Shown in pieces: positions 16,163 to 56,500 of a stretch of 64,000 bases of DNA. The notes beneath the pieces were generated by a model. That model was not told where the DNA came from. It worked only from the letters and a program-made list of their open reading frames with translations, and ran no database searches. A program made the translations under genes and the position numbers. How positions within the stretch are numbered: position 1 is the stretch's first letter; every line of letters begins with the position of its first letter. This DNA is from a virus, in the IMG/VR virus record IMGVR_UViG_3300032053_000042, positions 12,124 to 76,123 of that record. One strand, given 5' to 3'.

Positions 16163-16203
16163 TATCTCTTTCTCCTTTCTCTTGCTACTCGGTCTCGACA
16201 CAA

Positions 16204-16244: not shown

Positions 16245-16252
16245 ATGCGCAG

Positions 16253-16898: not shown

Positions 16899-17148
16899 CT
16901 GTGGACTCCTCGGTCTCTAGCTTCTCGGTCTCTGGCTCAGGCGTAGGCGTCGGCTCAGGCCTAGCCAGGTTCGTGGCTTCACGTACTTGCAAGCCTATGT
17001 TGTAGCCGTGTTGCCAAGCGTTATCCCAGGACTTGTAGAACTCGGCCATAGCCCGGACGATACTAGTGTTAAGCCACGCGTGTCGAGTAGCTTGCCAGTT
17101 AGCTTGTCGCTCAACTCTATCAGCTTGCGGTAGTTCGTGCTTCGGCAT
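16888..17148 (-). CDS. hypothetical protein
   Basis: AGGAGG RBS; PEPTPTPEP tail. Confidence 0.6.
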   Translation of the reverse strand: MPKHELPQADRVERQANWQATRHAWLNTSIVRAMAEFYKSWDNAWQHGYNIGLQVREATNLARPEPTPTPEPETEKLETEESTDGN

Positions 17149-17150
17149 AC

Positions 17151-34029: not shown

Positions 34030-35592
34030 ATGCCTAAAGTATTCATAGCGAATCCTACACAAGAGCCTTTTCTCCTAAGCGATGCACGCTTTTTGGGCTT
34101 CTTCGGTGGAATTGGCAGTGGTAAGACCGCAGCAGGGGCGATAAAAGCAATACAAAAGTTACGAGACGGCGACGGAATTATCGTAGGTCCGGACTACCCT
34201 CACTTTTGTAAATCGACCTGGGTGGAGGTTGCGAAATGGCTTCCATGGTCCCGGGTAACGAACAGAAATCTTCAGCATCCGCACACCAGTGAGAAGGTAC
34301 TGAAGATTCAGACGGCACAGGGTGAGCGTAGGATCTATTACGGAGGGATGGACGACGCCGCGGCCTGGGCTGGTCCTAGCGTCAATTTTGTTTGGGCCGA
34401 TGAGTTTCGACGCAAGCCCACTCGCCAACATTTCGATGTGCTCGCTGGACGTATTCGCGTCGGGCATAACCCACAGTTATGGTTAACAACTACACCGAAA
34501 GCCACGTTACGTGGGCAACAGCACTGGCTGCACGAGGTTTTTGTCCAGAAGAAGTTCGATCCGGAAGTTCTAAAGGCTTTTGCAGGTGCCAATCAGAAGT
34601 TAGTTGAATACTTTACGGCTCCTACTAGCGAGAATGCTGAACACCTAGACTCATTGTACTTGGCGAGCCTGAAAGGTCTATACTCAGGGAAGTACGCAGA
34701 CCAGGAGCTCGGGGGCGAATTTATTGACTTCGAAGGTCTAGTCTTTGCCAACTTCGACGAGGATAATGGGAACGTCAGCGTAGCTGCAGACTACACACCT
34801 GGAGTGGCTATCGAATGGGCGGTCGATAATGGTTTTACGGAGGGCCATCCTCTAGTAATCCTGTTAGCCCAAACGATTCCACCGTTCGTTAACATATTCG
34901 CAGAGTACGTAGCAGTACGTGAACAACAGGAAGTGTGTATCGCTAAGGCTCTCCAGATGGGTTATCCACTCCCATCTGTAGCAAGAGTGGACTCGTCAGC
35001 ACCAGATTTGATTCAACGCCTGTGGGATCGAGGTATTGAGACCGCACAGGGCTCGCACGACGTAGATGCAGGTATCTCTCATTTGCGATCGTTTATTCGG
35101 GATGGTAAGGACCAGGTCCATATTCGCTTTCATCCGCGTTGCACGTTCTCGATTGCAGAGATCCAAGCGTATTCGTACCCGGATGCCGTGGAATCAGGAA
35201 TTTCGATATCGTCGGACAAGGCTGCGAGGCCGATGAAGGAATCGGACAATGCAGCAGATGCACTTCGTTACTTGGTTTGGCCTAAGCAACTGGCGACGTT
35301 AGAGGCTTCGGCCGCCAGAGGCGATGTAATTCGTATACAAACTGGGAGGCCTAGTACACAGGGCCAGCAGCAACAAGTCCCGGCGCGTGGGTCTGTACCC
35401 TCGTTAACGCCGGTGACGTTGCAGGAGCAGGGCAGACCTGCGGCCACAGGGACGCAACCTGATCCTACTCCTACAGAACCACTGCGAGCACCTGTGGAAC
35501 GACGTACCGGCTGGTCAATTTTCGGCGGACCACGGAAGCCGAAGCCTCAGCGGATCAAACGCGACGCAAGTCGTCTTCCGCCCGGATGGTAA
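34030..35592 (+). CDS. terL: terminase large subunit
   Basis: GGIGSGKT Walker A, VWADE Walker B, LTTTP, AVDNG, DNAADALRY. Confidence 0.93.
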   Translation: MPKVFIANPTQEPFLLSDARFLGFFGGIGSGKTAAGAIKAIQKLRDGDGIIVGPDYPHFCKSTWVEVAKWLPWSRVTNRNLQHPHTSEKVLKIQTAQGERRIYYGGMDDAAAWAGPSVNFVWADEFRRKPTRQHFDVLAGRIRVGHNPQLWLTTTPKATLRGQQHWLHEVFVQKKFDPEVLKAFAGANQKLVEYFTAPTSENAEHLDSLYLASLKGLYSGKYADQELGGEFIDFEGLVFANFDEDNGNVSVAADYTPGVAIEWAVDNGFTEGHPLVILLAQTIPPFVNIFAEYVAVREQQEVCIAKALQMGYPLPSVARVDSSAPDLIQRLWDRGIETAQGSHDVDAGISHLRSFIRDGKDQVHIRFHPRCTFSIAEIQAYSYPDAVESGISISSDKAARPMKESDNAADALRYLVWPKQLATLEASAARGDVIRIQTGRPSTQGQQQQVPARGSVPSLTPVTLQEQGRPAATGTQPDPTPTEPLRAPVERRTGWSIFGGPRKPKPQRIKRDASRLPPGW

Positions 35593-39512: not shown

Positions 39513-40946
39513 ATGAAGCAATCAGTTAATGATCTGGTCCTTCAGCTGCAAGGGCTGTTGCAGCAGAAAGACGCCACAGGTGTACCGAATGCACAGATGT
39601 TGCACGGGCCAGGCGGTCTTTTTAGTACGTTCGGGATCGACAACGTGGTCGTTAATGCACACATGACGCCACGAGGCATCGAGGGTATGCTTCCTGTGCT
39701 GCCTTCCGTGTATCTTAATCCCCTCTTTACCTTTCTCACGGGCTTCGAAAGCGACGGCGGTAGCGAACCTAGCGGCCCTTGTGATACCTGCCCTGGCGGG
39801 GTGATCGAAACCTGTCACCAAACAGCTACTTTCGGCCGCGTCTGCCGTAGCAGCCAGGAGATCGAAGTTAACGAGATCGTCAACATGATCAACCGTGGTG
39901 AGACGACCCCGTTGCGGCTCTTAGGTGAGGTACTAGGTCCTGGTGGTCTAGCCCCTAAAGACAACCTAGACGTTACCGGTTGGATTAACATGGTTCTCCA
40001 GGCACAGATGGTGCTGATCTCGATCTTGTTCCAGCGTGCTCTGCTCCCGATGGTCTGGACTGGTAATCCGGCGAACAACACCCTCGGTGGCTACGCTGAG
40101 TTCCCAGGACTGGACATGCTGATCGGTACTGGTAAGATCGACGCTATCACAGGTGTAGCCTGCGGCGCCTTGGATAGCGACGTGAAGGACTTCGGCTATA
40201 ATCCGATGTACGGCGCCGACCCGGATATCGTGCGGTACTTGAGCACGATGGAATGGTACCTGCGTAACAACGCACGGGGTATGGGTCTGGAGCCAGTTGA
40301 CTGGGTGATCGCGATGAGGCCTGAGGCGTGGTTCGAATTGACCGAGATCTGGCCGATTCGATACAACACGGGTCTTGTCTCTCTAGCTATGCCGAACCAA
40401 TCGTTTATCATGGTTAACGGACGCGACAATACGGCCGAGCGGGATCGTATGCGCGAGCAAATGCGTATACCGATCAACGGTAACTGGTATCCAGTGATCG
40501 TCGACGACGGTATTGACGAGCAGACCCAAGCCGACAACGCTCTTATCCCACAGGGCGAGTTCGCTTCGAGCATCTACTTTATCCCGTTACGTGCCCGCGG
40601 AATGACCACGGTCTATTGGGAGACCAAGGACTATCGTGGTATTCCAGGACAGCTCTCTGTTCTACAGCAAACGAACCCCTACTGGATCAGTGATGGTGGA
40701 AGGTACCTCTGGACTTTAGAAAAGCTCACATGGTGCTTTTTCTTGATGGGCAAGATTGAGCCCCGAATTATCTTACGTACACCTCAACTTGCAGGTCGCA
40801 TCCAGAACGTACGCTACTCACCGTTACAACACCTAAGGTCACCTTTCCAGGACTCTGGATACTTCAAGAAGGGCGGCAACGAGAGCTACGACGCGCCGAC
40901 CTATTACTCGGAGTGGAATGCCAGGAGCCCCAGCGAGCATAACTAG
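39513..40946 (+). CDS. major capsid protein
   Basis: position, 477 aa, AAGGAG RBS; WTGNPANN...EFPGLD capsid-like motif. Confidence 0.8.
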   Translation: MKQSVNDLVLQLQGLLQQKDATGVPNAQMLHGPGGLFSTFGIDNVVVNAHMTPRGIEGMLPVLPSVYLNPLFTFLTGFESDGGSEPSGPCDTCPGGVIETCHQTATFGRVCRSSQEIEVNEIVNMINRGETTPLRLLGEVLGPGGLAPKDNLDVTGWINMVLQAQMVLISILFQRALLPMVWTGNPANNTLGGYAEFPGLDMLIGTGKIDAITGVACGALDSDVKDFGYNPMYGADPDIVRYLSTMEWYLRNNARGMGLEPVDWVIAMRPEAWFELTEIWPIRYNTGLVSLAMPNQSFIMVNGRDNTAERDRMREQMRIPINGNWYPVIVDDGIDEQTQADNALIPQGEFASSIYFIPLRARGMTTVYWETKDYRGIPGQLSVLQQTNPYWISDGGRYLWTLEKLTWCFFLMGKIEPRIILRTPQLAGRIQNVRYSPLQHLRSPFQDSGYFKKGGNESYDAPTYYSEWNARSPSEHN

Positions 40947-40976: not shown

Positions 40977-41678
40977 ATGACTGAAATAACATGGCCTACA
41001 GTAGTAATACTAATAGTGACCTACGATAGGCCACAAGAAATCCGAGCAACGATCCTGGGACTGATACACCATCTGTCTTACAGAGGTCAGCTCCTGTACG
41101 CAGTCTGTGACGACGGATCACCTGAAGGATATTTACAAGGTATCCACGAAGCCTTTCCGGACTTACAGATTGCGTTCTCGACGACGAAGAGACAGGGTTG
41201 GGGCGCCAATGTCAACGTAGGTATACGGACTCTAGTTCATAAGAATTATTGCTTCCTTACTGAAGACGATCAAGTAGCACTCACGAAGATTGACCTTACT
41301 AGTGGTGTGGCTCTACTAGAAGCGCTTCCAGATCTTGGCGCGATCAGATATGATGGAGTTGCAGGTCATGCACTAAACCTCGAGTTACGAGAGGCCGAGA
41401 CCGCTATAGGTAGAATGAACTACCTGAGGATTCTCAAGTCCTCGCCGCACCTGAACGTGTACTCAAATCGACCTCACCTGGCAGCTCCGCGCTTCCATGA
41501 GGTATACGGTACCTATTTAGTCGGAAAGACGTTAGGCCAAACAGAAGAAAGCTTTGCCCATAAAGTGAGGGACCAAGAGGGACCTGACATAGGCTGCTTA
41601 ACCGATGGTATTGCACTAGCCTTCGACCATATCGGGAAGAGCCGGCAAAACACCACGGAGGACGTACACCATGACTGA
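40977..41678 (+). CDS. glycosyltransferase family 2
   Basis: VILIVTYDRP, DDGS, GWGANVN, TEDD. Confidence 0.85.
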   Translation: MTEITWPTVVILIVTYDRPQEIRATILGLIHHLSYRGQLLYAVCDDGSPEGYLQGIHEAFPDLQIAFSTTKRQGWGANVNVGIRTLVHKNYCFLTEDDQVALTKIDLTSGVALLEALPDLGAIRYDGVAGHALNLELREAETAIGRMNYLRILKSSPHLNVYSNRPHLAAPRFHEVYGTYLVGKTLGQTEESFAHKVRDQEGPDIGCLTDGIALAFDHIGKSRQNTTEDVHHD

Positions 41679-42273
41679 CGTCGTACCTTGGGACGAGGGA
41701 AATGTTGCGAAGGCTATTGACACGTACTGGCTTACAAGCCCAATGGAAATAGAGTGGCGACGCCTTCTTATCGAGGATATGAAGCAAACGGTATTTACAG
41801 AACCAAGACCTTATCCAATCCTAGAGGTAGGTTGTGGTAGTGGTCTAATCTACGAGGCGATGGAGCTAGCAGGCTTAACGACTCCAGAGCTGTACGTGGG
41901 TGGAGATGTCAGTAAGTCAATGTTGGAGCTTGCTCGGTCTAGGTACGATGCTACCTTTCAAGAGCTCGACGGGCTTAAGCTACCATTCGAGGACCGCTCA
42001 CAGGAGAACGTGATTTGTGTTAGCGTACTACAGCACCTACCAGACTACCAACAGGCGTTACTTGAGCTATTAAGGGTTACGCGTAAGCGTCTGTACATAG
42101 CCCTGTGGATGCGTGACAGCGCTGGGGATGATATCCAGTTCGGTGGAAAGTTCTTTAACAACACATATTCGCTACGGCTTTTTAGTAAGCTAACGCAGAG
42201 TAAGCAGCCTACCATACGACACCTATACCTCTCGAACTATTCTGTGCTCTTTGTACAGAAGGAGCGAAAGTGA
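41671..42273 (+). CDS. class I SAM-dependent methyltransferase
   Basis: ILEVGCGSG, GDVSKSML, LPFED, VLQHL. Confidence 0.9.
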   Translation: MTDVVPWDEGNVAKAIDTYWLTSPMEIEWRRLLIEDMKQTVFTEPRPYPILEVGCGSGLIYEAMELAGLTTPELYVGGDVSKSMLELARSRYDATFQELDGLKLPFEDRSQENVICVSVLQHLPDYQQALLELLRVTRKRLYIALWMRDSAGDDIQFGGKFFNNTYSLRLFSKLTQSKQPTIRHLYLSNYSVLFVQKERK

Positions 42274-42812
42274 ACTACGCGGTGGGTGGGAGAGTGCGAT
42301 TACGACCAGTAGAGATTAAAGACGATGAGTACATCGTGCGGTGGCGGAATACCGACCGCTTAGCTTTTTTCGATCAGACTGTAGTCACACCTGACACCCA
42401 CCGTCTTTTCGTGGAGAATCGCAAGTCTCACGATCTCGTATGGATGGTCGAAGCAGGTTCGTGGACTGTGGGAATGGTTAGTCTGACAGTCGACGTAGTC
42501 AATGCTACCGCCGAGTTTGGTAGACTGTACATCGCTCAGGGCTTTCGTAGGCAGCGACTGGGTACAGAGGCTTCTTACACCGCTCTCGCCTATGGCTTCG
42601 AGCTACTACGTCTACAATCGATCTGGCTGCTAGCCCGTTCGGACAACAAGGAGGTTCGGCGGATGTACGATAACATGGGATGGTGTGCTGAGCTAGCAAA
42701 GCTCGACGTGATTCGTATGACGTACAAGAATACGTACTGGGCTCTAGAGGGTCGTAATCGTTTTATGAGGGACTTTGGAGTAAACCTTGATCCGCATCTT
42801 GACACTATTTAA
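42270..42812 (+). CDS. GNAT N-acetyltransferase (PseH/RimJ-like)
   Basis: LRPVE..D...IVRWRN, AEFGRLYI, RRQRLGT, N..VRRMY..MG. Confidence 0.85.
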   Translation: MNYAVGGRVRLRPVEIKDDEYIVRWRNTDRLAFFDQTVVTPDTHRLFVENRKSHDLVWMVEAGSWTVGMVSLTVDVVNATAEFGRLYIAQGFRRQRLGTEASYTALAYGFELLRLQSIWLLARSDNKEVRRMYDNMGWCAELAKLDVIRMTYKNTYWALEGRNRFMRDFGVNLDPHLDTI

Positions 42813-43431
42813 TAAAGCTCAGCTCGTACTAGAGGCCATAGCTAGCGTGGAGGCACAGACTCGACGCGATTATATCCACTTTGCAAGACCAGATACTTAT
42901 CGTGCGCGCGATGGCAGATATCCACCGGCAGTCTATTATAATGAGATGGCAAGAATAGCTCCGATGGAAGATTACATTAGTTGGTTATCGGATGATGATC
43001 TTTTGTTCCCTAATTACGTAGCTGATCTAGCAGGACATCTAGACGCGCATCCTGAGATCGATTGTGTATATGGTGGTAGCAAGCACGTTCTACACGAGCC
43101 ACCACAGGAGGATAGACTGATACGAAACCTTCCGCAGCAGTGGCCGTTTCCATTGTTCAACGCCGAGCTTTCACCCTTTTGTCAGATCGACGGTGGACAG
43201 TTTATGATTCGACGGTCGGGCCTGGAGAAGATTCCGTATCCGTGGTATCCTGAGGACGCTGCAAGTGCGAGTGGATGTGATGCAATCTTTATGCGTAAGA
43301 TCTCGCAGTACTTTCCGATGTATCCGATACCGGTCTTCGTTATGACTAATCGGGCGACTTCTGCTAGTTGCCACACTGTGGCAGTTCGTGGACATCTAGA
43401 GAAGGGCGTTGGATGGAAACCTTATGGGTGA
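42787..43431 (+). CDS. glycosyltransferase family 2
   Basis: AIASVEAQT, YISWLSDDD, IDGGQFMIR. Confidence 0.8.
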   Translation: MIRILTLFNKAQLVLEAIASVEAQTRRDYIHFARPDTYRARDGRYPPAVYYNEMARIAPMEDYISWLSDDDLLFPNYVADLAGHLDAHPEIDCVYGGSKHVLHEPPQEDRLIRNLPQQWPFPLFNAELSPFCQIDGGQFMIRRSGLEKIPYPWYPEDAASASGCDAIFMRKISQYFPMYPIPVFVMTNRATSASCHTVAVRGHLEKGVGWKPYG

Positions 43432-44086
43432 TGTAACGGCTGTAATAGTCAATCTGAATACGGTTGAGCTTACAAAGATAGCAGTAGAGAGCTTAGTTCG
43501 AGCCTATCCAGATATAGCTCTTATCTTGATAGACAACGGCTCAGTAGATGGCACGACGCAGTACCTACAAGAGCATTGCTCAGATAGAGAGAAGTCTAGA
43601 GCACTTTTCTTGCATCACAACATTGGACATGGACCTGCCTTGCATCTAGCTACGAACATGATTGGTACACCGTATTTCTTTACGATGGATTCTGACTGTG
43701 AGGTTCGTGCACCTGGCTTTCTAGAGTCTATGATACAGTACTTCGATGACGGGTCAGTGTACGCTGTAGGGGACCTACTATACGTTCGATCAGAGGATGC
43801 AGAGGATCCTTCGAGAGAGTTTAGAAGCTGGCCTACGTACGTTCCATACATATCACCCCACGCTGGTTTATATCGAATGAGCTTTTACAGGACAACCTAT
43901 CCGTTCATGCACCATGGAGCTCCACTACTGTGGAACATGATAGGAGCACGATCACGCGGCTGGATGTGTATAAGCTTTCCGATACAGGAGTACGTAGCTC
44001 ACCTAAGAGCCGGTACACGTAAATTATACGACGCTAGCCAACGAGAGTGGAATATTGTAGCTGGACGACTTCCGGTAGGATGGTAA
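43424..44086 (+). CDS. glycosyltransferase family 2
   Basis: IDNGSVD, NIGHGPAL, MDSD. Confidence 0.85.
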   Translation: MGDVTAVIVNLNTVELTKIAVESLVRAYPDIALILIDNGSVDGTTQYLQEHCSDREKSRALFLHHNIGHGPALHLATNMIGTPYFFTMDSDCEVRAPGFLESMIQYFDDGSVYAVGDLLYVRSEDAEDPSREFRSWPTYVPYISPHAGLYRMSFYRTTYPFMHHGAPLLWNMIGARSRGWMCISFPIQEYVAHLRAGTRKLYDASQREWNIVAGRLPVGW

Positions 44087-44088
44087 TA

Positions 44089-44697
44089 ATGTTCAATCAC
44101 GATGCAGTCTTTCACTCAACTTATCGAGGAGTACCGATAGTTAAGCTTCCGCTAGACCTGTGGGTCTACCAGGAACTAATGTCGAGACTAGGAAATGTTC
44201 GCTGCGTCGTGGAGATTGGAACCTTTCAAGGCGGTAGTGCACTAGCTCTATACGATATGATGTGTGCGATCAATCAGTGCGAGGATAATCTAGTTGTTAC
44301 GATTGACGTTAAGGCAGATGTCCATAGTGATCTTGTCCTACACAACCCACACATTATTCGCTTAGTAGGTAATGCTGCCTACCCCAGCACAGTAGTGAAG
44401 ACATTCGAAGAGTGCGCAGCTTACGCCGACGAGGTTATGGTTATAGATGATGGTAGTCATTTACGCGACGAGGTACTAGCCGCCTTATGCCAGTATCGTG
44501 TATTAGTAGCTGTGGGTGGATACTATATCGTCGAGGATACGATCTGTCATCATGGTATGGAGGTAGGACCTATTCCTGGTCCCTACGAGGCAGTTCAAGA
44601 GTTTCTACGTACCAACGACGACTTTGTAGTCGACGCCACCTGTGAGAAGTTTGGACTGACCTATAATCCGTCAGGGTTCCTGAGGAGGGTTCGATGA
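44089..44697 (+). CDS. CmcI-family (rhamnosyl O-methyltransferase-like) protein
   Basis: KLPLDLWVYQE, VEIGTFQGGSA, VIDDGSH, YIVED, GPYEAV.EFL. Confidence 0.85.
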   Translation: MFNHDAVFHSTYRGVPIVKLPLDLWVYQELMSRLGNVRCVVEIGTFQGGSALALYDMMCAINQCEDNLVVTIDVKADVHSDLVLHNPHIIRLVGNAAYPSTVVKTFEECAAYADEVMVIDDGSHLRDEVLAALCQYRVLVAVGGYYIVEDTICHHGMEVGPIPGPYEAVQEFLRTNDDFVVDATCEKFGLTYNPSGFLRRVR

Positions 44698-45755
44698 TTC
44701 CACTGCTCCGACCGTCTTGTACCGATGCTGAGATTGAGGCAGTTACGAAGGTAATGCGCTCTGGTTGGTGGGGTATGGGAAAGGTCTGCGAAGAGGTTGA
44801 GGCTTTCCTAAGTAACTACTACGACTACGCGCACTGTGTAACGACCAATAGTGCCACAGCGGCGTTACATTTAGCCTTACTGTCACACAACATAGGTCCA
44901 GGAGACGAGGTTATCGTTCCGGCCTTAACCTTTATCAGTACTGCTCTAGCTGTAAGCTACGTTGGAGCCACACCGGTGTTCGCAGATATTGATCCTAGGA
45001 CCTTATGTATTGATATGGCTGATGTCGAGCGTAGAATAACTCGACATACCAAGGCCATTATTGCGGTGGACTATGCAGGATATCCAGCGCTGGTCGAGAG
45101 ACCAGAATATCCATTTCCGACTATTCAGGACGCGGCACACTCCTGTGGAGGAGTAGGTTACGGTGATGATATTTGCTTGAGCTTTCATCCAGTTAAGAAC
45201 ATAGCTACCGGTGATGGTGGAGCGATTATAACTAACGGCGAAGTGCGAGCTAATCGACTTCGAGCTTTACGTTGGTGCGGCATCGATAAAAGTACTTGGG
45301 AACGTACTACTACTCGGTACGGTTGGGATTATGATATCAACGAGATGGGATTTAAGTGTCACTGGAATGACATACAGGCGGCCATTGGGCTGGTTCAGCT
45401 ACACAGAATGCCAGAGCTTCTAGCTCGTCGGCGAGCAATTGCTAAGATGTACGATGAGGGTTTGTTGGGTCTTTGTCAGTTACCGTTAGACCATCCGAAG
45501 CATACGTATCATTTGTATCCGATCAGGGTAGACGCAAGAAAGAGGAATCGAACTATTCAGCACCTTCTGTCGAAGGGGATCAGCGCTGGAGTGCATTATA
45601 AGGCTCTTACGGAATATCCGATGTACCACCAAGCCACCCCACCCGTTACGGATTATACGTGGCATCGACTAATAAGCTTACCGATCTTCTTCGATATGAC
45701 GGACGAGCAGGTTAATCTAGTTATCACGACTCTAAGGGAGGTCCTTGATGGCTGA
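44694..45755 (+). CDS. DegT/DnrJ/EryC1/StrS nucleotide-sugar aminotransferase
   Basis: NSATAALHLAL, GDEVIVP, QDAAHS, SFHPVKNIATGDGG (PLP lysine), GVHY, LISLP. Confidence 0.95.
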   Translation: MIPLLRPSCTDAEIEAVTKVMRSGWWGMGKVCEEVEAFLSNYYDYAHCVTTNSATAALHLALLSHNIGPGDEVIVPALTFISTALAVSYVGATPVFADIDPRTLCIDMADVERRITRHTKAIIAVDYAGYPALVERPEYPFPTIQDAAHSCGGVGYGDDICLSFHPVKNIATGDGGAIITNGEVRANRLRALRWCGIDKSTWERTTTRYGWDYDINEMGFKCHWNDIQAAIGLVQLHRMPELLARRRAIAKMYDEGLLGLCQLPLDHPKHTYHLYPIRVDARKRNRTIQHLLSKGISAGVHYKALTEYPMYHQATPPVTDYTWHRLISLPIFFDMTDEQVNLVITTLREVLDG

Positions 45756-46974
45756 CATAGATACCCTGAGGGAACGTATTCCTTGGCTATTTGGGCTTGG
45801 AGGCGAGCTTCTACTCATCGCCGATAAGCCTGGACGTAACTCCCTAACCGCTTCCTTAGCGAAAGAGGGCTATCGAGTTACACTTCTGGAGCCGAGACGT
45901 AACTTTGCTCGGGGAGCGGAGCGTAGTAAGGCGTTTACTAGGATTCTACAGGGGCTTCCTTACGATATTGCCGCTATAGCATCTATGCAAGGCCTGCAGT
46001 GGGATATAGTATTATGGTACCATCGAATGGATGTAGTCTCGTATGAGGAGTTTGTGCGTAGCCTATCGCAGCTCCAGCTCGTTACTAGAAAGGTAGTCGT
46101 GGTAGGAGATCCACACCATACACGTTTCGCTAAAGATCTAGGATTGCACGACTTTCATCTCGTAGGTGATCTAGGTATATGGTATGGAGGACAGTGGCCT
46201 TTACCAAGGCCGGCTGGGGTGGTGTCTGAGGTGGTACCTGAGGTAGCACCTGTGGTACAAACTCCCGAGCTTGTTCCATCCCTTGCAGAACTAGGTCAGG
46301 TTACGGCGATTGTGGTTGGCTTTAACACGAAGGCTTTGACCAGGAACGCAGTAGCCACGCTGAGGCAGGCCTATCCTAAGTTGTCTGTAATTCTGTTGGA
46401 TAACGCGTCGTCTGACGGATCTACACCAGATGTGGCACGACTAGCTACAAGTTATAACGTACAACCTGTACTAAACGGCACGAATATCGGCCACGGGCCC
46501 GCATTAGACCAGGGTATTCGGATGTGCAATACGCCCTACATTCTACTTTTGGACTCTGATTGTGTCGTGCATAAAGCAGGCTTTATCGAGGCTATGCTAG
46601 CTCGATTCGCGGAGGATTCTAAGTTGTATGCGGTGGGCTGGTTGCGCACTGTAGATCGCTATTCCGGGGTACCTTTGGAGTGGCACGTAGTACAACCGTC
46701 TTCAGCTCAATTCTGCCAATACGTGCACCCCAGCTGTGCCCTAATTGACCGAGCGAAGTACTTAGGTCTCCCATCGGCCTTTCATCACGGAGCTCCTATG
46801 CTACAGAATATGCGAGGAGCGGTGGATGCGGGCTATACCTTGGAAGACTTTCCTGTTGGCGAGTTCGTTGAACATCTAGTCGCAGGTACGCGAAGGATCT
46901 ATCAGGGAAAATGGAACCCCCTAACGAACGAGGCTCGTGGTACGTGGCGAGCTACTGATAAGCTACCGATCTAG
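45748..46974 (+). CDS. degenerate methyltransferase-like domain fused to GT2
   Basis: C-terminal LDNASSD, NIGHGPAL, LDSD, HHGAP paralogous to 43424-44086; N-terminal Rossmann-like remnant. Confidence 0.75.
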   Translation: MADIDTLRERIPWLFGLGGELLLIADKPGRNSLTASLAKEGYRVTLLEPRRNFARGAERSKAFTRILQGLPYDIAAIASMQGLQWDIVLWYHRMDVVSYEEFVRSLSQLQLVTRKVVVVGDPHHTRFAKDLGLHDFHLVGDLGIWYGGQWPLPRPAGVVSEVVPEVAPVVQTPELVPSLAELGQVTAIVVGFNTKALTRNAVATLRQAYPKLSVILLDNASSDGSTPDVARLATSYNVQPVLNGTNIGHGPALDQGIRMCNTPYILLLDSDCVVHKAGFIEAMLARFAEDSKLYAVGWLRTVDRYSGVPLEWHVVQPSSAQFCQYVHPSCALIDRAKYLGLPSAFHHGAPMLQNMRGAVDAGYTLEDFPVGEFVEHLVAGTRRIYQGKWNPLTNEARGTWRATDKLPI

Positions 46975-47016
46975 ATCTTCTGGAGGGCTGCTCAAAACTG
47001 GAGAAGAGGAGGATTT

Positions 47017-49656
47017 ATGAGTTTGAAGGTCTTTATGCATCCTGAGCCAGATACGAAGCCTGAGGCCATAGGTAACGGAATACAAATGGTCGTCCAGGCG
47101 ATGTATAAGCATTTACCTACTATGGACATTGAGCTGGTGTCGTCACTAGACCATGCCGACCTTTTCGCGTCACACGTAGACTCGCCCTTTAGAGTGCCAG
47201 ACGTACTACACACACATGGACTCTATCCCACAGGTGAGATGGAGATGGGCGGGTGGGCTTTTGAAGTTAATGCCAGGGTTATCACGAACGCTAGACAGGC
47301 TCTGGCCGTAACGGCGCCTTCAACGTTCGTGGCGGATATTTTTGCTCGTAATCTAGGCTTTAGACCAAAGGTAATAGGTCACGGAATCGAGCCAGGCGAA
47401 TGGCCTGAGCCTTCTCGACGTAACGAGCTGACAGTTCTATTCAATAAGAACCGCGCAGGGGACGTATGCTCAGCTGAACCTGTTGAGCGTCTAGCACAGC
47501 TACGCCCGAACGTAAAGTTCATGTCGACGTTCGGTACTAAGCGTCGTAACCTTGAAATCACAGGTGCAATGCCACATCCTGCAATGAAAGAGTTGTTATA
47601 CAAGTGCGGGATATATTATGCGCCAACCAAGGAGACCTACGGTATCGGCATTCTAGAGGCCATGGCTGCGGGAATGCCTGTACTAACGTGGGACTGGGGC
47701 AACAATCCTGAGTTAGTACGACATATGGTCGATGGATACATCGTCGAGCCCTACGACTATACTGGTACCGCTAAAGGCCTTGACTGGTGTATTGAGCACT
47801 TCAGCGAGCTTACGGGGCATGCTCGAGTACAAGCCTTAACACACTCTTGGGAGGGACCGATAGCTTCATACGCTGCCCTTTATCGACAAGCGTATGCTCG
47901 CAAGCTTGCTAAGGGCCCGTTAGTATCAGTTGTGATTCCTTGTTACAATTATGGTAAGTACGTAGCCGAAGCCATACAGTCCGTGAAAGATCAGACCCTT
48001 ACAGATTGGGAGTGCATCGTAGTAGACGATGGCTCAACTGACGACTCTTTTGAAGTAGCCAAGAAGGCCACGCAGGACGATCCTAGGTTCACAGTAATAA
48101 CGCAGTTGAATGCAAAGGTAGCAAATACACGCAATCGTGGGGCCACTCGTGCTCAAGGTAAGTACCTGTGCTTCCTGGACGCCGACGACTATATGCTACC
48201 AAGGTGCTTAGAGATCCTAACAGCCGCCTTACTTAAGGACCGAACCGCTGGTATTGCCTATGGTAGGCTCAAGGAGCTCACAGATAAGGGACTAGAGGCT
48301 GGCGTCTCAAGCTGGCCTAACGACTTTAACATGACGCAGCAGCTCGCTCAACGGAATCAAGTACCGTCGTGCTGCTTGATTGAGACTAGAGCGTTCTTTC
48401 GAGCTGGTGGCTTTCGTTCTCACACTATACCAGCAGAGGATGCCGAGCTGTGGACTAGAATTCCTCTTCTAGGCTTTAACGTGATCAAGGCTACTGACGA
48501 GGCTACGTATGTTTATCGAAAGCATGGTACAAACGCTACACTAGTTCATCCAGGGATGCCTCCATGGACGGCTTGGCTTCCTGCAGCTCATAAGGGAGTT
48601 CAGCCTATTGCTAGTGTGGCTCCAGCTGCGAAGCAATCGCACCCCGTGTTCAACTACGACAGACCTTTAGTAAGCTTCGTCACACCTGTGGGACCTGGAC
48701 ACGAGGCTCTTGTAGGTGATGCAATTGAGTCGGTTTGCGCACAGATAGACCCTAGGTGGGAGCATATCATTATCGACGACACAGAGGGAGGTAGTCTACA
48801 GGAGTATGGCGTTATTCCATATGCTATGAGATATCCTCACCTTAAGTGGCTACGTAGTTCAAAGCTTCACAATGTTAGTGCGGCACGTAACGCTGGTGCT
48901 AGGATGGCTAGAGGTAGGTTCCTGTGCTTCCTAGACGCTGACGACATGTTATTCAAGGAGTTCGTACGCGATACTCTACCAATGACTATGGAGCGAGCTA
49001 AGCCTCTAGTTTACACCGACTGGATTGAGCTTCCTGAGGGTACAGTACACCAGGCGGAGAACTGGGATCCAAAGGCGCTTCAGCAACGATCTATAATGGC
49101 TGTAACCTTTCTGCACGAGAAGAGCGCCTTTACGCTCGTAGGTGGGTTCGACGAGTCCTTGGACATGTGGGAGGACTGGGATTACACAGTACGGCTTTCC
49201 TTCCTAGGCTATCAAGGTATACACGTACCCAAGCCTTTGTTCAGCTATAGCTACAATACTGGGAAGAGGCGAGAGGAAAGTCTGGAGAAGGCCAAGCAAG
49301 TAGTTAAGAGCGACGCTCGAACACCTGTGGAGACTCAGGTACCAGCACAAGTTATAGCACCACCGCCTGTGGAGGATCCTCGATTCGCTATACATAAGGC
49401 GATACGACCACCTGCGGTTCCTCGGGCACAGGTGCAAGAGAACATGACGATTATCCAGCCTAGGTTGACTCGGCCTGGGCAAGCTAATAACGTAGGAGTA
49501 CGGTATATTGGAACAGTAGCAGACACTAGGCTCTATCGAGCTCCGAGTGGGAGGAGATATCGATTCGGTTCCGGTGTACACCAGGTACAGATGGTAATGG
49601 CCGAGGATGTTGCGCATTTTAAGGCTATGTCTGGCCTATTCGAACTTGTATCATAG
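47017..49656 (+). CDS. multidomain glycosyltransferase GT4-GT2-GT2 with small C-terminal domain
   Basis: ETYGIGILEAMAAG (GT4); VSVVIPCYN/DDGS/FLDADD; second VSFVTP/FLDADD/EDWD; Pro-rich linker and ~55-aa tail domain. Confidence 0.9.
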   Translation: MSLKVFMHPEPDTKPEAIGNGIQMVVQAMYKHLPTMDIELVSSLDHADLFASHVDSPFRVPDVLHTHGLYPTGEMEMGGWAFEVNARVITNARQALAVTAPSTFVADIFARNLGFRPKVIGHGIEPGEWPEPSRRNELTVLFNKNRAGDVCSAEPVERLAQLRPNVKFMSTFGTKRRNLEITGAMPHPAMKELLYKCGIYYAPTKETYGIGILEAMAAGMPVLTWDWGNNPELVRHMVDGYIVEPYDYTGTAKGLDWCIEHFSELTGHARVQALTHSWEGPIASYAALYRQAYARKLAKGPLVSVVIPCYNYGKYVAEAIQSVKDQTLTDWECIVVDDGSTDDSFEVAKKATQDDPRFTVITQLNAKVANTRNRGATRAQGKYLCFLDADDYMLPRCLEILTAALLKDRTAGIAYGRLKELTDKGLEAGVSSWPNDFNMTQQLAQRNQVPSCCLIETRAFFRAGGFRSHTIPAEDAELWTRIPLLGFNVIKATDEATYVYRKHGTNATLVHPGMPPWTAWLPAAHKGVQPIASVAPAAKQSHPVFNYDRPLVSFVTPVGPGHEALVGDAIESVCAQIDPRWEHIIIDDTEGGSLQEYGVIPYAMRYPHLKWLRSSKLHNVSAARNAGARMARGRFLCFLDADDMLFKEFVRDTLPMTMERAKPLVYTDWIELPEGTVHQAENWDPKALQQRSIMAVTFLHEKSAFTLVGGFDESLDMWEDWDYTVRLSFLGYQGIHVPKPLFSYSYNTGKRREESLEKAKQVVKSDARTPVETQVPAQVIAPPPVEDPRFAIHKAIRPPAVPRAQVQENMTIIQPRLTRPGQANNVGVRYIGTVADTRLYRAPSGRRYRFGSGVHQVQMVMAEDVAHFKAMSGLFELVS

Positions 49657-49665
49657 GAGGGCGCT

Positions 49666-49938
49666 ATGCCGTGTCGCAATTGCCGTCAGAAGGCACAAGC
49701 TAAGTTCTATGCAGGAGTGAAAATCAAACGGCTCGTCAACGAGCCTAACACGGATCCCGCTTCCGAGGATGAGTTCGTTGTGGAGTTTCTTGGATCTGGA
49801 ACCAACGAAGTGAAGTACCGTGGACCAACTGGTAAAGCATATCGCTTTGCTGCTGGTTCGAGCGCTGTGCAGAAGATATGTGAGACCGATGCGCTCTTCT
49901 TTAATCAGCTGTCCATGTTTAGGGTGCATGCGGCATAA
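49666..49938 (+). CDS. small putative head-associated protein (homologous to the GT C-terminal domain)
   Basis: GGAGG RBS; YRGPTGKAYRF matches YRAPSGRRYRF in the upstream GT. Confidence 0.6.
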   Translation: MPCRNCRQKAQAKFYAGVKIKRLVNEPNTDPASEDEFVVEFLGSGTNEVKYRGPTGKAYRFAAGSSAVQKICETDALFFNQLSMFRVHAA

Positions 49939-49950
49939 CAGGAGTTCGAA

Positions 49951-51135
49951 ATGGGAATCGCAAGCACTGAAACTCTGTTGAGTCTGGACCAGTACGCGGA
50001 AATAATGGGCATCCCGCCCTCACATTTTAACCAAGCTGTCTGCGTCGATTATCCTGATGTCGACAGCTGCCATAGCATATGGTACCAGTATAGTTGGATG
50101 AGCCCGGGCAAAGCTTCAAGGGAGGAGCTAGCTCGAGCAATTGCACAGGCTGAGACCATGATTGCTCAGCTAATGGGTGTGTGGCCTGCACCTAAGTGGC
50201 TTACAGAGGACACGCAGCCCTATCCACGGCAGCGAATGCACCAGAATAGCTTCGTAGAGTACTATCCTGCAATGTCCACAGGGCGACGTAAGACTGTTGG
50301 AACACGATGGACTCATTTCATCGCAGGCGGACGTCGAGCAGTGGCTTCTATCGCAGCAGGTGTGACTGTAACTTATCCAGCTGCACCACATCTAGGTAGC
50401 GGTACGGCCTCGATATCAGTCGCTTATGTAGGTACTGCAACGGCTAACGAGATTGCAGTCTTTTCCTCTACGAACACGTCGCCTAATAAGCAGATCAGGC
50501 ATCTTGAGGTCACTATAGCTAGTGGAGTACTTACGATTCGTGGACGATCAGCACAGTTTCTCTTGCCAACTCTGTGGGAGGATGAAGCTCTTATCGACGG
50601 TGACGACCTTACACAGTACCTAACGACCGTGAACATCTATAGGGTGTACAACAGTGCAATCGATAACGCTGAAGCTCCTGTCGAGTTTGGCTGGCAAGCA
50701 GCCGACGCCATCGACTTACTCAAGGGCTATGGTACCTTGCAGGTCTGGGATGCTCGAGTAGGTATCGTATCACCTATACCTGCAGTGTGGAACGCTACTA
50801 CGCTCGAGTGGGATGCAAAAGTGTTCTGTCCTGGAGATGAGCCGCATACAATGCAGCTGTTTTACAAAGCTGGTTGGACTCTTGATCCTCAAGGCCGAAT
50901 GTCGGAGCCTGTGGCGCGAGCAGTTGCAGCGTTAGCCACAGCACTCTTATCGGCTCCGGTGTGCGGATGTAGTCAGGCCGAGAAAATGTCCATATGGTGG
51001 CAAAGTTATCCCAGTAAGGACGAGCCGACGAGTTATCGGCAGATAGAGTGTCCGTGGGGTGCCCGACGTGGTGCTTACGAGGCTTATAGAGTACTAAGCA
51101 CGTTTTGGGGAAGTGCGGGAAGTATTGGTCTTTAG
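49951..51135 (+). CDS. head-tail connector/adaptor
   Basis: AIAQAETMI, YKAGW...ARAVAALA adaptor-like pattern; position. Confidence 0.6.
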   Translation: MGIASTETLLSLDQYAEIMGIPPSHFNQAVCVDYPDVDSCHSIWYQYSWMSPGKASREELARAIAQAETMIAQLMGVWPAPKWLTEDTQPYPRQRMHQNSFVEYYPAMSTGRRKTVGTRWTHFIAGGRRAVASIAAGVTVTYPAAPHLGSGTASISVAYVGTATANEIAVFSSTNTSPNKQIRHLEVTIASGVLTIRGRSAQFLLPTLWEDEALIDGDDLTQYLTTVNIYRVYNSAIDNAEAPVEFGWQAADAIDLLKGYGTLQVWDARVGIVSPIPAVWNATTLEWDAKVFCPGDEPHTMQLFYKAGWTLDPQGRMSEPVARAVAALATALLSAPVCGCSQAEKMSIWWQSYPSKDEPTSYRQIECPWGARRGAYEAYRVLSTFWGSAGSIGL

Positions 51136-51170: not shown

Positions 51171-52649
51171 ATGGATCAACAGACGGGCTTCGGGCGCGTT
51201 TTTATACAGGAAAACGGCGCAAATCCAGGTAACCCCTATTCCTATCAAGGATGCGGGAAGCTTGGAGGCTTTACTGAACCTCAGGGAGGGATCACAGCAA
51301 TTAAATGTCCTTCCGCAAGTCAGTACGATGAGTTTGAAGTTGTAGGCAGTGTAAGAGGCGAAGCGGGTCTACCTACCACCTCGCTGATTATTCGCCTTCA
51401 ACCTCGACTCCGCATGTTACGTATGAAGTGTGCATTTGACATTCAGGCCCACTACGGCGAATGCACCAGTCCATCAGATTTCCACAAGTGGACTCAGATC
51501 GTCGCTTTTGAGCAAGCACGATTTACTCAGAAGAGTAGTGGCGAGCTGACAGCTATGGAAGAGACGGAACGCGCCACTGTCCTAGTCACAGGGGACATCA
51601 CGGCCCAGAGGATCTGGTACGTCGAAACCATGACTCTGGCCGAGGTTGCACCGACAGAAGTAACCGACGAGGTCGTTGGTGTAGCCATGGATCCCCGTGT
51701 GATGTGCGGCACCTGTGGTGTTCCATCCGATGGGACACAACGGATGTTCGCAGTTGTGAAATCTCCGACAGCGACGTCCCCGGGTCTACCAGCAGAACTA
51801 CTGGTATCTGAGGACGGCGGAGGTACTTGGACTCAGTACGTTATCAATACGCTTGGTCCTAGCGATGACCCATCGGGTATCGCGATCGTGGGTAACAACG
51901 TGGTGATCGTCTCGAACGACACAGGTAGTCTCCACTACGCCGATATGGATGATCTATCGACCTGGACTGAAGTGACCGTAGGATTCGACGTCCTAGGGCC
52001 TCCGAATGCAATTTTCGCCTTGAATACCACGGCAGTGTGGATCGTAGGCGACAGCGGCTTTGTCTACTTCACCGAAGACATTACGTCAGGTGTGACAGTG
52101 CAAAGCACTGGTGGTGCGGCTGGTAATCAGGACTTATACGATGTACACGCAATGAGTGTGAACGTGGTCATTGCCTGTGGCGCCGCTAGTACGGTGATCT
52201 ATTCAACCAATGGTGGAACTACTTGGGCCGCTGTTGGTGGAACCGGCTTACCGGTGGCTGTATCCTTTAGAGCTTGCTGGGCCCGCACGACTGTCTGCTG
52301 GCTAGTAGGTGGTGCTAATGGACGCCTCTACTATACTAAGGACGCTGGACTGACGTGGACTGAGAGTAGCTTCCCAGGAAGCGGTGCAGGAGCGGTATAC
52401 GACATCGTGTTCTGCTTGCATCCTTCAAGCCCATTTGGATTTATGGCTCATACACCGGTTGCAGGACGAGGTAGGATCTTGCGCACTTTGGACGGTGGTA
52501 ATACTTGGCACCTGCTTCCTGATGGTGGCGGTCTTACTCCCGACAACGATCGTATCGTGTGCCTGGCAGCGTGTGGAGATCCTAACATAGTCTTAGCCGG
52601 AGGCCTTGGCGCTAACGGTGTGGACGGGATTCTCATAGTCGGGTCCTGA
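51171..52649 (+). CDS. major tail tube protein with C-terminal beta-propeller (BNR/YCF48-like)
   Basis: upstream of chaperone and TMP; Asp-boxes SEDGGGTW, STNGGTTW, TKDAGLTW, TLDGGNTW. Confidence 0.65.
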   Translation: MDQQTGFGRVFIQENGANPGNPYSYQGCGKLGGFTEPQGGITAIKCPSASQYDEFEVVGSVRGEAGLPTTSLIIRLQPRLRMLRMKCAFDIQAHYGECTSPSDFHKWTQIVAFEQARFTQKSSGELTAMEETERATVLVTGDITAQRIWYVETMTLAEVAPTEVTDEVVGVAMDPRVMCGTCGVPSDGTQRMFAVVKSPTATSPGLPAELLVSEDGGGTWTQYVINTLGPSDDPSGIAIVGNNVVIVSNDTGSLHYADMDDLSTWTEVTVGFDVLGPPNAIFALNTTAVWIVGDSGFVYFTEDITSGVTVQSTGGAAGNQDLYDVHAMSVNVVIACGAASTVIYSTNGGTTWAAVGGTGLPVAVSFRACWARTTVCWLVGGANGRLYYTKDAGLTWTESSFPGSGAGAVYDIVFCLHPSSPFGFMAHTPVAGRGRILRTLDGGNTWHLLPDGGGLTPDNDRIVCLAACGDPNIVLAGGLGANGVDGILIVGS

Positions 52650-53549: not shown

Positions 53550-56500
53550 ATGGCTAAGCAATTCATGCAGATTGGCGTCGATCTTAGCGTACGTAACTTT
53601 GCGCAGGCTCAGTCACAGTTCAGTCGAGCTGAGAGCATGGTTAAGGCGCTAGGTGACACCACAGGCACTATAGCCACTGAGTCCCAGCGAATGACTCGTG
53701 CTCTAGGTGCTGCAGGTATCGCCTTGGGCATCGTTGGGGCGGCTGCTCTTGGGGCCGTAATACCTATGGACCAGCTAGCAGACACGCTGGAGCGCACCAC
53801 GTTTATGGGTAATCGCGTTGCTGCCTCCATGGGTATAACTACTGATGCTATGGCGATTGAACGAGAGGAGCTTAATAAGCTAGATGTCGCTCGAGGCATT
53901 AGCTATGGCGTCATGAACAGCATGATCCTTCAGGGCGTCGACTACGCTAGAGCTAGTGATCTAGTCACAACTGCTATGGACCTAGCCGCGTTCAGTGGTA
54001 TAAAAGTCACACAGGTCATCAACGATCTTACTACAGCTGTAGACAACGCGAGTACAAGAACGCTGCGACAGTACAGAATTACAGCCAGTGCTGAAGTAGT
54101 CTTTGCATCCTATGCACGCGCTCATGGACTAGTAGCAACCGCACTAACTGAGGTTGAAAAGCGCCAGGCCGTCTTAAACTACATCCTAACAGTTGGTACG
54201 AGAGTTGCTGGAGACTACAACGCTTCTCTACGGACCTCGGATGGCATTACAATGCGTCTAGGTCTACGGTTGCAGCGTCTAGGCGAAATTATAGGTGCGA
54301 GCGTTAGCCCGATTATCGATAGCGTCATTAAGGCGCTTACTAAGCTCGTAGAGACCTTTATAGCTCTACCTCCAGCTATTCAGGATACCATAGGAAAGAT
54401 GCTTCTCCTCGTAGGCGTGATTGGCGTGGTATCTATGGCTTTTACGTTCATGCTACCTGCTCTGAAAGTTGTTATAACCGCTTTTGGTGCTCTACCCGCT
54501 CTAATATCTAATACAACTGTAGCTATGGCGGCGGCTACAACTGCTGGTGCGAAGTGGGGCGTCTTTATAGCCGGTATGGGTACTCAGCTAGCCAGGCTAA
54601 AAGCATTGCTTATAGCTGTTGGTCCTTGGATAATAGCTATTGGTTCAGTTGTCCTTGGAGTCGCTGCAATTGTTAGCATGTATACTACCTCCGCTAAAGC
54701 AACCGACGCGTTCAACGCTGCCTTGGATAGGTCTGACAAGCTTACTAAGACTTTCACAAAGGATCTAGGAGCTGCGGCGGACGCTGCAGAGACCGATCTA
54801 AAGCGCGCCTTGGAGGGAGTAACCGACGCTCTGTTCGAGCTCGACAACCAGTTGCACGCTCTAGATGCAGCCCTGTGGCCCTTCGAGGACGCTCTGACCC
54901 GAATTAAGGCACAGTCAGACCTTATCATTATTCCCCTTGAGCGTCAACAACGAGTTCTTGAGCGTCAGCTTGATGCGGTCAACAAGATGGCGGATGCTCT
55001 AGATAGGGCCTTGCAGCCTTATGAGGACGCTCTTACTCGGGTGGAAGCTAAAGCAAATCTTATTACTATTCCCCTTCTTCGTCAGCAGCGAATCCTTCAG
55101 CAGCTGGTCGACACAATAACTAGACAGCTTAGCGAGCTGGATAAAGCCCTGTGGCCCTTCGAAGACGAGCTTACTCGAGTTCGGGCAGCAGCGGATCTCA
55201 TTACTATTCCTCTGCAGCGACAGGAGCGAATTCTTCAGCGGCAGGTTGACGCGATTAGAAGGGTGGAAGAGGCTGAGCAGCGACGAGCTGAAGCTGCTAT
55301 TAAGGCTCTACAAGACCAAGCAGACCTTATGCAGCTGATCATCGACGCCGACAGGGAGCGGCTCGAAGTTATTGATCATGAGATCTTCATGGAGAAGATA
55401 CGTAACCAGATTTTGGGTCGAGTTGCCTCAGCTAAACTTATTACAATGAAGTCCTCGTCGAGAGTCCTTACGGATCAAGTCGATCAAGAGGAGTTAGCTC
55501 TTAAGAAGACCCAGGACCTCGTGACAGCTGAACAAAAGCGCTGGGACGAGCGGCAAGCGGCACTTGAGGCTCAGCAGCAAGTTATTCAAGATCAAATCGA
55601 CCAGCTACGAGAGATGATACAGCTAGAGCTCGATAAGGTCACTTATGCACAAGAAGAACTAACTCTACGACAAGCCATACAAGTAGAAGCTCGGCTAGCT
55701 CTTCTTGAACAACAGCGACTCCTTCAGTACCAGATAGATCAGCTACAGGTAATAATACAGCTGGAAGCCGATAAGGTCACCTACGCCCAAGAGGAGCTAG
55801 CTCTACAACAAGCGATGCAGGTGGAGGCTCGACTAGCTGTCCTTGCTCAACAGCAGCTTCTTCAAGACCAGATCGACCGGTTAAAAGAGACGATCCAGCT
55901 GCAGAAAGATAAGATAACTTACGTAGAAGAGGAGCTGGCGCTACGACAGGCCGCACAGGTCGAGGAGCGACTAGCTATCCTGGCACAGCGACGTTACTGG
56001 GAAGAAGAGCAGCGACAGCTCAAGCACGCTCTTGAGCTCGTTGAGCGAGTTAAGGCAGCTGCAGCCGAGACTGCGGCTATAGCAGCCGAGATTACACCGG
56101 CGCTCGAGCTACCCGAGCCACCCATTAGCGAGGCTGGTACAATTAAGCTACCCTGGTACGCGGAAACCCTAGCTCAAATCGTAAGCTGGACGAAGTTTGC
56201 CATATATGATATCAAGCAGCTCTTTCAGGGCAAAGGGCTTATCAAGGACTGGCTTGTACAGGCTAGTCAGGATATCATTGACTGGGTAGTGACGAGCTCG
56301 CAGGACATCCGAAACTGGGGCTACAAGGTCCACGTTCTCATTAGCGACGCGACGTGGAAGGTCATTGACGCCATCAAGAACTGGACTACGCAGGCTGGCA
56401 CAGATATCAAGAACTGGGTTACTCAAGCTGGCATAGATATTAAGAACTGGGGTATCCAGGCTGGTATCGACATCAAGAACTGGACTGTGCAGGCAGGTAA

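Follow-up and report, generated by a model that had tools for sequence, protein, structure and literature searches.

Why does a tailed phage carry a set of sugar-transfer and sugar-tailoring genes directly behind its capsid gene, and on what do the encoded enzymes act? The question is raised by a 64,000-nucleotide stretch of DNA from a sediment phage, bases 12124-76123 of the 76-kb IMG/VR virus record IMGVR_UViG_3300032053_000042, which is ~91% complete. We refer to this whole stretch as the window and number all positions from its first letter. The island in question (40977-49656, plus strand, as are all genes described below unless noted) consists of nine co-directional genes, g1-g9, which encode seven glycosyltransferase (GT) domains, two methyltransferases, one GNAT acetyltransferase, and one DegT aminotransferase. 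An initial annotation of the window had read these genes as one system that glycosylates the virion. The comparison described here divides the island into two layers, a core triple GT (g9) and a variable tailoring cassette (g1-g8), and we consider it probable, by a modest degree, that together they form a cytoplasmic system that glycosylates virion proteins.

The division rests on synteny. We gathered 80 related viral loci with a capsid alignment and scored gene sharing by tblastn; whole-record searches covered 50 related viral records, 13 of them near-complete. Over the 80 loci, g9 is the only island gene that is broadly shared. It is present in 49 of the 50 records and in all 13 near-complete genomes, and the sole exception is an 18.8-kb fragment. 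When the comparison is anchored on the capsid gene, g9 lies 3′ of it on the same strand in 37 of the 48 loci in which the sequence extends at least 9 kb downstream; when it is anchored on the GT, the capsid gene lies 5′ in 55 of 64 loci. Two seeming exceptions (L148 and L163) carry remote capsid homologues at that place (hhalign probability 99.4% and 98.0%), and the linkage is kept where capsid identity drops to ~22%. Judged by this conservation, the triple GT belongs to the core gene set of a phage lineage that is both large and uncultured and is represented in metagenomes by ~2,000 capsid sequences and at least 1,200 GT sequences.

The other eight genes behave differently. The interval between the capsid gene and the gene for a 394-amino acid (aa) protein, o394, is bounded on both sides in 28 loci, where it measures 1.0-8.9 kb, and that of the window phage, at 9.0 kb, is the largest. 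Among the 117 open reading frames (ORFs) other than g9 in these intervals, Pfam recognizes Methyltransf_24 (9), DegT (8), short-chain dehydrogenase/reductase (SDR, 6), GT2 (5), and sulfotransferase (5) domains, followed by RmlD (3), CapD-type dehydratase (2), and FkbM (2). SDR dehydratases occur in the records of 24 of the 50 relatives, and those that we mapped by hand all lie in the island. By gene content, g1-g8 is a lineage-specific cassette in a general cargo hotspot and is different in every relative, so that the nine-gene unit of the initial annotation is better described as a core gene plus an eight-gene variable cassette. The slot also holds non-sugar cargo, namely, N6/N4 and C5 DNA methylases, M23, GH25, and SH3 endolysin domains, and DUF1360 proteins, the last of which are probably the ORFs of ~100-120 aa that stand behind long GT forms; the island of one relative includes a C5 methylase. 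In two very divergent relatives (L148, at 15299-17568, and L150), the same methyltransferase-GNAT-DegT trio as in the window, with a DegT protein 54-56% identical to ours, stands 3′ of the triple GT instead. The recurrence of the trio suggests that phages exchange the amino-sugar module as one block.

The island itself is compact. Its genes overlap by 4-40 nt or are separated by gaps of at most 42 nt, the gap between the capsid gene and g1 is 30 nt, and promoter- and terminator-like sites show no enrichment in the region; the island appears to be co-transcribed with the head genes. The catalytic motifs are intact, with DXD in each GT2 domain, the pyridoxal phosphate-lysine motif SFHPVK in the DegT protein, and S-adenosylmethionine (SAM) motif I in the methyltransferase. 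ORFs and Pfam domains agree with the initial annotation on the nine-gene content, the tight packing, and the count of seven GT domains, with g4 scoring just below the GT2 cut-off. Other contigs from sediment runs span the capsid gene to g3, g4 to g8, g8 to g9, and g9 to g10 with few differences. Since independent contigs bridge every island junction, the island is not an assembly artefact; for run X3, which covers the island in part, conclusions are confined to the covered part. The G+C content falls to 0.485 across 42-46 kb, compared to 0.505-0.54 on the flanks.

The core enzyme, g9, is an 879-aa protein (47017-49656) with the architecture GT4-GT2-GT2. Its first domain (47017-47901) is a GT4 of the GT-B fold, recognized by Glyco_transf_4 and Glycos_transf_1, in which E206...E214 (EX7E) is invariant in 24 homologues. 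The second (47914-48546) is a GT2 of the GT-A fold (PF00535) with invariant DDGS and DADD motifs, and its closest solved structure is the chondroitin synthase K4CP (E 1.9e-27). The third (48670-49296) is a second GT2, a further PF00535 stretch with invariant D640-A-D-D and E719-D720 and a match to PglI at residues 616-740. All three catalytic centers are invariant across these 24 diverse homologues. A Pro-rich linker, read from the sequence (49297-49476), leads to a C-terminal module that is considered below. The GT2 domains are nearest to chondroitin and heparosan synthases, GalT1, TarS/TagF-type enzymes, and PglI, all of which extend sugar chains. No cultured phage was found with a full-length g9; the matches are to single GT2 domains at ≤24% coverage. 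In four records (G012, G022, G028, and G029, the records of L016, L036, L044, and L045), the GT4 part and the GT2-GT2 part are two adjacent genes, and some orthologues of ~1,190 aa (P0235, P0239) carry an extra methyltransferase domain.

The nearest characterized relatives of the island GTs (chondroitin/heparosan synthases, TagF/TarS, TuaG, EpsD/E, and PglI) act on polysaccharides, which raises the alternative that the island remodels the host envelope. In such a scheme, the soluble GTs would act on undecaprenyl-linked O-antigen, capsule, or teichoic-acid intermediates, and the altered surface would mask receptors against superinfection or stop progeny from sticking to debris. Many O-antigen GTs have no transmembrane helices, and PHROGs gives weak "GtrB-like" labels; however, these matches span just ~100 residues, the nucleotide-binding half of the GT-A fold. 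The genome also departs from a GtrABC arrangement, as no island GT has a transmembrane-like segment, searches with positive controls found no Bac_transf priming transferase, Wzx flippase, or integrase, and there is no GT-C enzyme. With no integrase, lysogenic conversion is unlikely, and one would not expect a gene for surface conversion to be universal and to stay tied to the capsid gene over deep divergence. Taken together, we judge envelope remodeling to be decidedly improbable.

The ~59-aa C-terminal module of g9 (49477-49653; pI, the isoelectric point, ~11) is detected by an iterated hidden Markov model (HMM) with E 1.7e-15. The next gene, g10 (49666-49938), encodes a free 90-aa copy of the same module, which is 31% identical to the g9 C-terminus over 55 aa by BLASTP and scores E 6e-15 with the HMM. 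Across related loci, the iterated HMM finds this g10-like module 78 times in 66 loci, 52 times fused to a GT and 26 times free. Some genomes have one fused module and two free copies, and in L020, where the slot lacks a GT, the module is found in the ORF directly 3′ of the capsid gene. The AlphaFold2 model of g10 has a predicted local distance difference test score (pLDDT) of ~90 over the domain and consists of four strands, a helix, and a strand. Only Y59 and D75 are near-invariant. The best Z scores given by VIA, for primase PriS (5.7), the YqbF N-domain (5.1), and the lambda gpFI C-domain (3.7), fall below a noise guide of ~8, and an Atlas search with the module returned only hypothetical clusters, at <0.9. 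We also considered whether the module could be an Sso7d-like (SH3-like) DNA binder, which was unsupported; the best Foldseek E was 0.26, for PsaD and the GINS B-domain.

The junction of g9 and g10 has a form of its own. g10 shares the reading frame of g9, with one TAG stop (49654-49656) between them, and the same frame and single stop are found in all six lineages in which a free g10-like ORF abuts the GT (the window, L003, L004, L006, L011, and L015). In the five relatives, the junction between the GT and the small ORF reads CGT-GGT-TGA-GG, and the stop is followed by linker-like Pro-rich sequence. The shared junction suggests either programmed UGA read-through, giving a short GT and an extended isoform, or changes at the stop codon by which fused and split forms have repeatedly replaced each other.

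Because the module is fused to the GT or encoded as one to three copies directly behind it, it could itself be the acceptor, as a self-primed glycan carrier; in other versions of this alternative the acceptor would be a nonstructural phage or host protein or a small molecule, and the glycan would not be a stable part of the virion surface. The module has no confident fold match, which leaves a structural role unsupported. However, it contains no conserved Ser, Thr, or Asn, and an acceptor of this kind would leave the tight linkage to the capsid gene unexplained. We regard it as very unlikely.

The tailoring cassette begins with g1 (40977-41678), a 233-aa GT2-family protein (PF00535 E 6.8e-07, 29.8 bits; DDG and EDD motifs) with homologues in 19 of the 80 related loci. 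It is followed by g2 (41671-42273), a 200-aa class I SAM-dependent methyltransferase (Methyltransf_11 E 8.6e-16; motif I ILEVGCGSG), and by g3 (42270-42812), a 180-aa PseH-like GNAT N-acetyltransferase (Acetyltransf_3 E 9.5e-13) whose best NCBIfam match is PseH at 43.8 bits, below the cut-off of 93.1. g4 (42787-43431, 214 aa) is a divergent GT2-like protein with a DDD motif, 22.5 bits to PF00535 (cut-off 23.3), and a match to phrog_14775, a glycosyltransferase family, at E 3e-4; g5 (43409-44086, 225 aa) is a GT2 enzyme with DNGS and DSD motifs (PF00535 E 2.8e-18). The 216-aa g6 (44047-44697) resembles CmcI and rhamnosyl O-methyltransferases (PF04989, RMNT_CmcI, E 3.1e-33), and its best NCBIfam match is a rhamnosyl O-methyltransferase at 95 bits, below the cut-off of 400. 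g7 (44694-45755, 353 aa) is a PseC/ArnB-like DegT sugar aminotransferase that contains the SFHPVK motif (PF01041 E 5.9e-90). Its closest solved structure is ArnB (E 3.5e-62), and its NCBIfam scores of 266 bits for PseC (cut-off 423.5) and 262 bits for ArnB are both below the equivalog cut-offs. The last cassette gene, g8 (45745-46974, 409 aa), had been described initially as methyltransferase-like plus GT2; the C-terminal GT2 stands (PF00535 E 6.6e-17, residues 188-303), but the N-terminal domain of ~170 aa has no family match in Pfam or in further profile scans (residues 1-170), and "methyltransferase-like" is a tentative label for it.

The pairing of g7 with g3 points to amination and then N-acetylation at C4 of a uridine diphosphate (UDP)-4-keto sugar, with O-methylation also encoded in the island. 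The initial annotation had drawn the same amino-sugar logic from DegT plus GNAT, citing the viosamine of mimiviruses as a precedent; the PseC/ArnB-like and PseH-like assignments agree with the logic, and the product to which they point is a 4-acetamido UDP-sugar, not specifically viosamine. The absence of a nucleoside diphosphate-sugar dehydratase, noted at first for the window, extends to the whole 76-kb record, in which no SDR dehydratase, epimerase, or nucleotidyltransferase was found (PF16363 and PF01370 are absent). None of the other Pse enzymes (PseB, PseG, PseI, and PseF) were found among the island proteins in Pfam and NCBIfam scans. Since the scores lie under the equivalog cut-offs and there is no PseB/ArnA-type dehydratase or decarboxylase and no PseG, PseI, or PseF, this is not the pseudaminic-acid or Ara4N pathway.

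We infer the acceptor, the identities of the sugars, late expression, and a docking function for the module, and they combine into the following scheme of virion glycosylation. Expressed with the head genes, g9 would add three sugars in sequence, or extend a repeat; its acceptor would be a virion protein (most probably the major capsid protein, possibly also tail or head-completion proteins), and the g10-like module, also available as free g10, would bring g9 to its target. g7 and g3 would convert a host-supplied UDP-4-keto sugar to a 4-acetamido sugar, the four single-domain GT2 enzymes would add further residues, and O-methylation of the sugars would fall to g6 and g2. The virion surface would then bear a glycan whose core is conserved and whose outer sugars are specific to the lineage. 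A virion-protein acceptor is favored by the tight, deep linkage of capsid gene and GT taken with the apparent co-transcription with the head genes and with the precedents discussed below. Virion glycosylation remains the most probable function, given soluble enzymes and the lack of lipid-carrier export machinery, of an integrase, and of a ThyA-like route to a DNA base open to glycosylation.

Several results weigh against this reading. The slot tally includes 11 DUF1360 proteins, four DNA methylases, and endolysin domains, and with such cargo, position in the slot is no guarantee of a structural role. Peripheral GTs that have no transmembrane helices can act on lipid-linked host intermediates. 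BLASTP of Corndog gp35-38, a known virion-glycosylation set, against all island proteins gave no match at E ≤ 0.01. The fold of the g10-like module has no confident match by Foldseek, VIA, or profile search against Protein Data Bank (PDB) sequences, which makes its docking role conjectural, and the module is basic, with a median pI of 8.6 and 11.2 for the fused copy. Finally, among the best 120 g9 homologues, 41 carry the module and 22 (~18%) a C-terminal helix-hairpin-helix (HhH) domain. The virion target proposed at first is still, in our estimate, the likeliest one and slightly more probable than not, and the position of the island is weaker evidence for it than had been assumed.

The HhH domain deserves separate treatment. 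It is PF14520 (27-40 bits) and stands at the extreme C-terminus of orthologues such as P0153, P0158, and P0179. All 10 of the long orthologues tested have it at the C-terminus, and in 14 of the 22 HhH-bearing homologues it lies C-terminal to the g10-like module. In the related loci, it occurs solely fused to a GT, in 21 GT ORFs of L002-L170, and never in other ORFs. HhH domains usually bind DNA. A triple GT held on DNA by its basic module or by the HhH domain could build an oligosaccharide on phage DNA before or during packaging, which the cassette would diversify against restriction. Such DNA glycosylation would suit the core status of the gene, as expected of an obligatory DNA modification, and DNA methylases occupy the same slot in some relatives. 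DNA-glycan clusters are reported near phage structural genes, and their GTs resemble teichoic-acid and lipopolysaccharide GT-A enzymes (bioRxiv 10.1101/2023.12.21.572611).

However, the known routes to glycosylated DNA all require a hydroxylated base. ThyA homologues (PF00303) were found in none of 51 records (the window record and 50 relatives) in searches with positive controls, and C5-methyltransferase (PF00145) and TET/JBP (PF12851) are absent from the window record. PF12851 was likewise found in none of the 50 relatives, but the control genomes gave no match either. The window phage does carry 7-deazaguanine genes. FolE was chosen as the marker of that pathway because phage DpdA proteins are divergent (the TGT family, PF01702, is found in none of the 50 relatives); it is present here and in only one of the 50 relatives, whereas the GT is near-universal, so the GT does not depend on 7-deazaguanine modification. 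Seven GT domains with amino-sugar and methyl tailoring would exceed the mono- to trisaccharide DNA glycans of the papers on such clusters, and the genes sit in the head operon, whereas the replication genes are on the other strand. We therefore regard DNA as an unlikely acceptor. A DNA-tethered triple GT that used neither a ThyA- nor a TET-made hydroxyl would represent new chemistry, with the cassette providing anti-restriction diversity, and this more specific proposal seems to us less likely still.

The gene order of the phage is, by its predicted proteins, siphovirus-like. On the minus strand, 1-27 kb encodes DNA polymerase I, a primase-like protein, ligase, exonuclease, and a Sak4-like annealing protein. 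The plus strand carries, in order, the terminase large subunit (34030-35592), three conserved ORFs (o448, which is a portal candidate, then o192 and o529), the 477-aa protein, and the island; 3′ of the island follow the 394-aa protein, a BNR-repeat protein, a 200-aa protein, the tape measure (53550-57050), Dit, and minor tail proteins. Pfam and PHROGs returned nothing for the capsid protein, o448, o192, o529, o394, or g10. We assign the 477-aa protein (39513-40946) as an HK97-fold major capsid protein on the basis of its predicted structure. The AlphaFold2 model was built on 25 homologues and has a pLDDT of 69, and each of its top Foldseek matches in the PDB is an HK97 capsid of a phage or an encapsulin (probability 1.0, E 4.5e-10), with TM-scores to phage HK97 capsids of only 0.35-0.46. 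The family has ~1,976 metagenomic members. The initial annotation had placed the island between the major capsid gene and a connector gene; the HK97-fold model bears out the first of these flanks, while the second, o394 (49951-51135), is a putative head-completion/connector protein from synteny and weak Atlas leads to head-completion and connector clusters. An o394 homologue stands 3′ of the triple GT in 28 of the 80 capsid-anchored loci and in most GT-anchored loci.

Three segments of the capsid protein are candidate glycosylation sites, as read from its sequence. The top-conserved motif of the family, P-A-N-N-T...G-Y-x-E-F-P-G (residues 186-199 of this protein), has an N-x-T sequon within it, and part of the motif falls in a loop modeled with low confidence (pLDDT <50 at residues 187-194). 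Near residue 90, within residues 88-101, there is a conserved C-x-x-C-P-G-G motif, and the C-terminal 20 residues are conserved, yet predicted to be disordered. Downstream of o394, a 492-aa BNR/Asp-box beta-propeller protein (51171-52649) takes the expected place of a major tail protein, ahead of the 200-aa ORF and the tape measure, and is kept in 21 of the 80 related loci. It may serve the virion as a glycan-binding or sialidase-like component. Upstream of the terminase, a PAPS-reductase-like protein (31002-31952; phrog_424, E 8.5e-43) is encoded. Sulfur/PAPS metabolism may be connected to glycans in this lineage, as the cassettes of relatives hold sulfotransferases (5 of 117 ORFs).

Neither a megablast search with 24 kb nor a tblastn search with the capsid protein turned up close relatives among cultured phages. 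As for the host, metagenome-assembled genomes with the capsid gene scatter over archaea, bacteria of the candidate phyla radiation, Proteobacteria, and Chloroflexota, which suggests mis-binned phage contigs. The homologues of the g7 DegT protein are almost all metagenomic proteins. The host is probably not an actinobacterium.

To our knowledge, virion glycosylation of phages has been demonstrated experimentally only in a few mycobacteriophages, where phage-encoded GTs carry it out. The lineage described here is large and wholly uncultured, and it has a three-domain GT locked to its capsid gene, with the space between the two serving as a swap site for sugar-tailoring genes. New here are the conservation of g9 alone, the hypervariable slot, the shared small module, and the HhH fusions. 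Were the virion the target, a major environmental phage group would possess surface glycans as an ancestral and obligatory trait, with bearing on adsorption, particle stability, and recognition in sediments, and the same logic of conserved core and variable periphery as in chloroviruses would have evolved here. Were it DNA, the modification would be of a new kind. With either target, g9, g10, and the capsid protein make up a defined enzyme-substrate set that can be expressed without culturing the host.

How does the island compare with systems that are already known? The DNA-glycan clusters of phages, which include the T4 alpha- and beta-GTs, C5-methyltransferase-5mYOX-GT sets (bioRxiv 10.1101/2023.12.21.572611), and arabinosyl-5-hydroxycytosine (PMC13326640), share with it GT-A and GT-B enzymes, encoded in some cases near structural genes, whose products range from mono- to oligosaccharides, and a glycan diversity that is plausibly driven by an arms race. 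They differ in that they adjoin a ThyA homologue or a C5-methyltransferase/TET pair that makes the acceptor hydroxyl, neither of which was found in the window record or in the relatives. The fibril cluster of mimivirus (R141, L136, L142, L137-L140, L143, and R132) combines a DegT-type aminotransferase, an N-acetyltransferase, a methyltransferase, and about five GTs, and its products are methylated 4-acetamido-4,6-dideoxy sugar polymers on the virion surface (PMC9614988, PMC10117803). The island groups the same four kinds of enzyme in one cluster. However, mimivirus encodes the 4,6-dehydratase R141, whereas the window phage has none and 24 of 50 relatives have one; the mimivirus acetyltransferase was modeled on PglB of Neisseria gonorrhoeae (PMC9614988), whereas g3 is a GNAT; and mimivirus glycosylates fibrils rather than the capsid of a tailed phage.

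Two systems come closer in their organization. [quoted passage not shown] In the Corndog genome, a TylF-type O-methyltransferase and GT block lies between the portal and protease genes. Both systems place a sugar O-methyltransferase and several GTs, all soluble, inside the head operon of a siphovirus. They show no detectable sequence similarity, and Corndog has four small genes (TylF methyltransferase, GT2-like, and GT25), whereas the island has nine genes with seven GT domains and amino-sugar synthesis, and its key GT is a fused three-domain core enzyme. In chloroviruses, the 860-aa three-domain GT A111/114R is present in all members and is the proposed builder of the capsid-glycan core, to which A064R and A061L add variable, methylated sugars (PMC9614988). 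The chlorovirus PBCV-1 thus matches the island in its soluble cytoplasmic GTs, a conserved three-domain GT of ~860 aa at the core, and a variable periphery of GTs and methyltransferases, with strain-specific outer sugars that include O-methylated rhamnose. PBCV-1 is a eukaryotic giant virus with a double-jelly-roll capsid, and its GT genes are scattered, not beside the capsid gene; the domain families of A111/114R and g9 also differ. The likeness is an analogy of architecture. Although not a sequence-level member of the mycobacteriophage system, the island would, on this comparison, work in the manner of both the mycobacteriophage and the chlorovirus systems.

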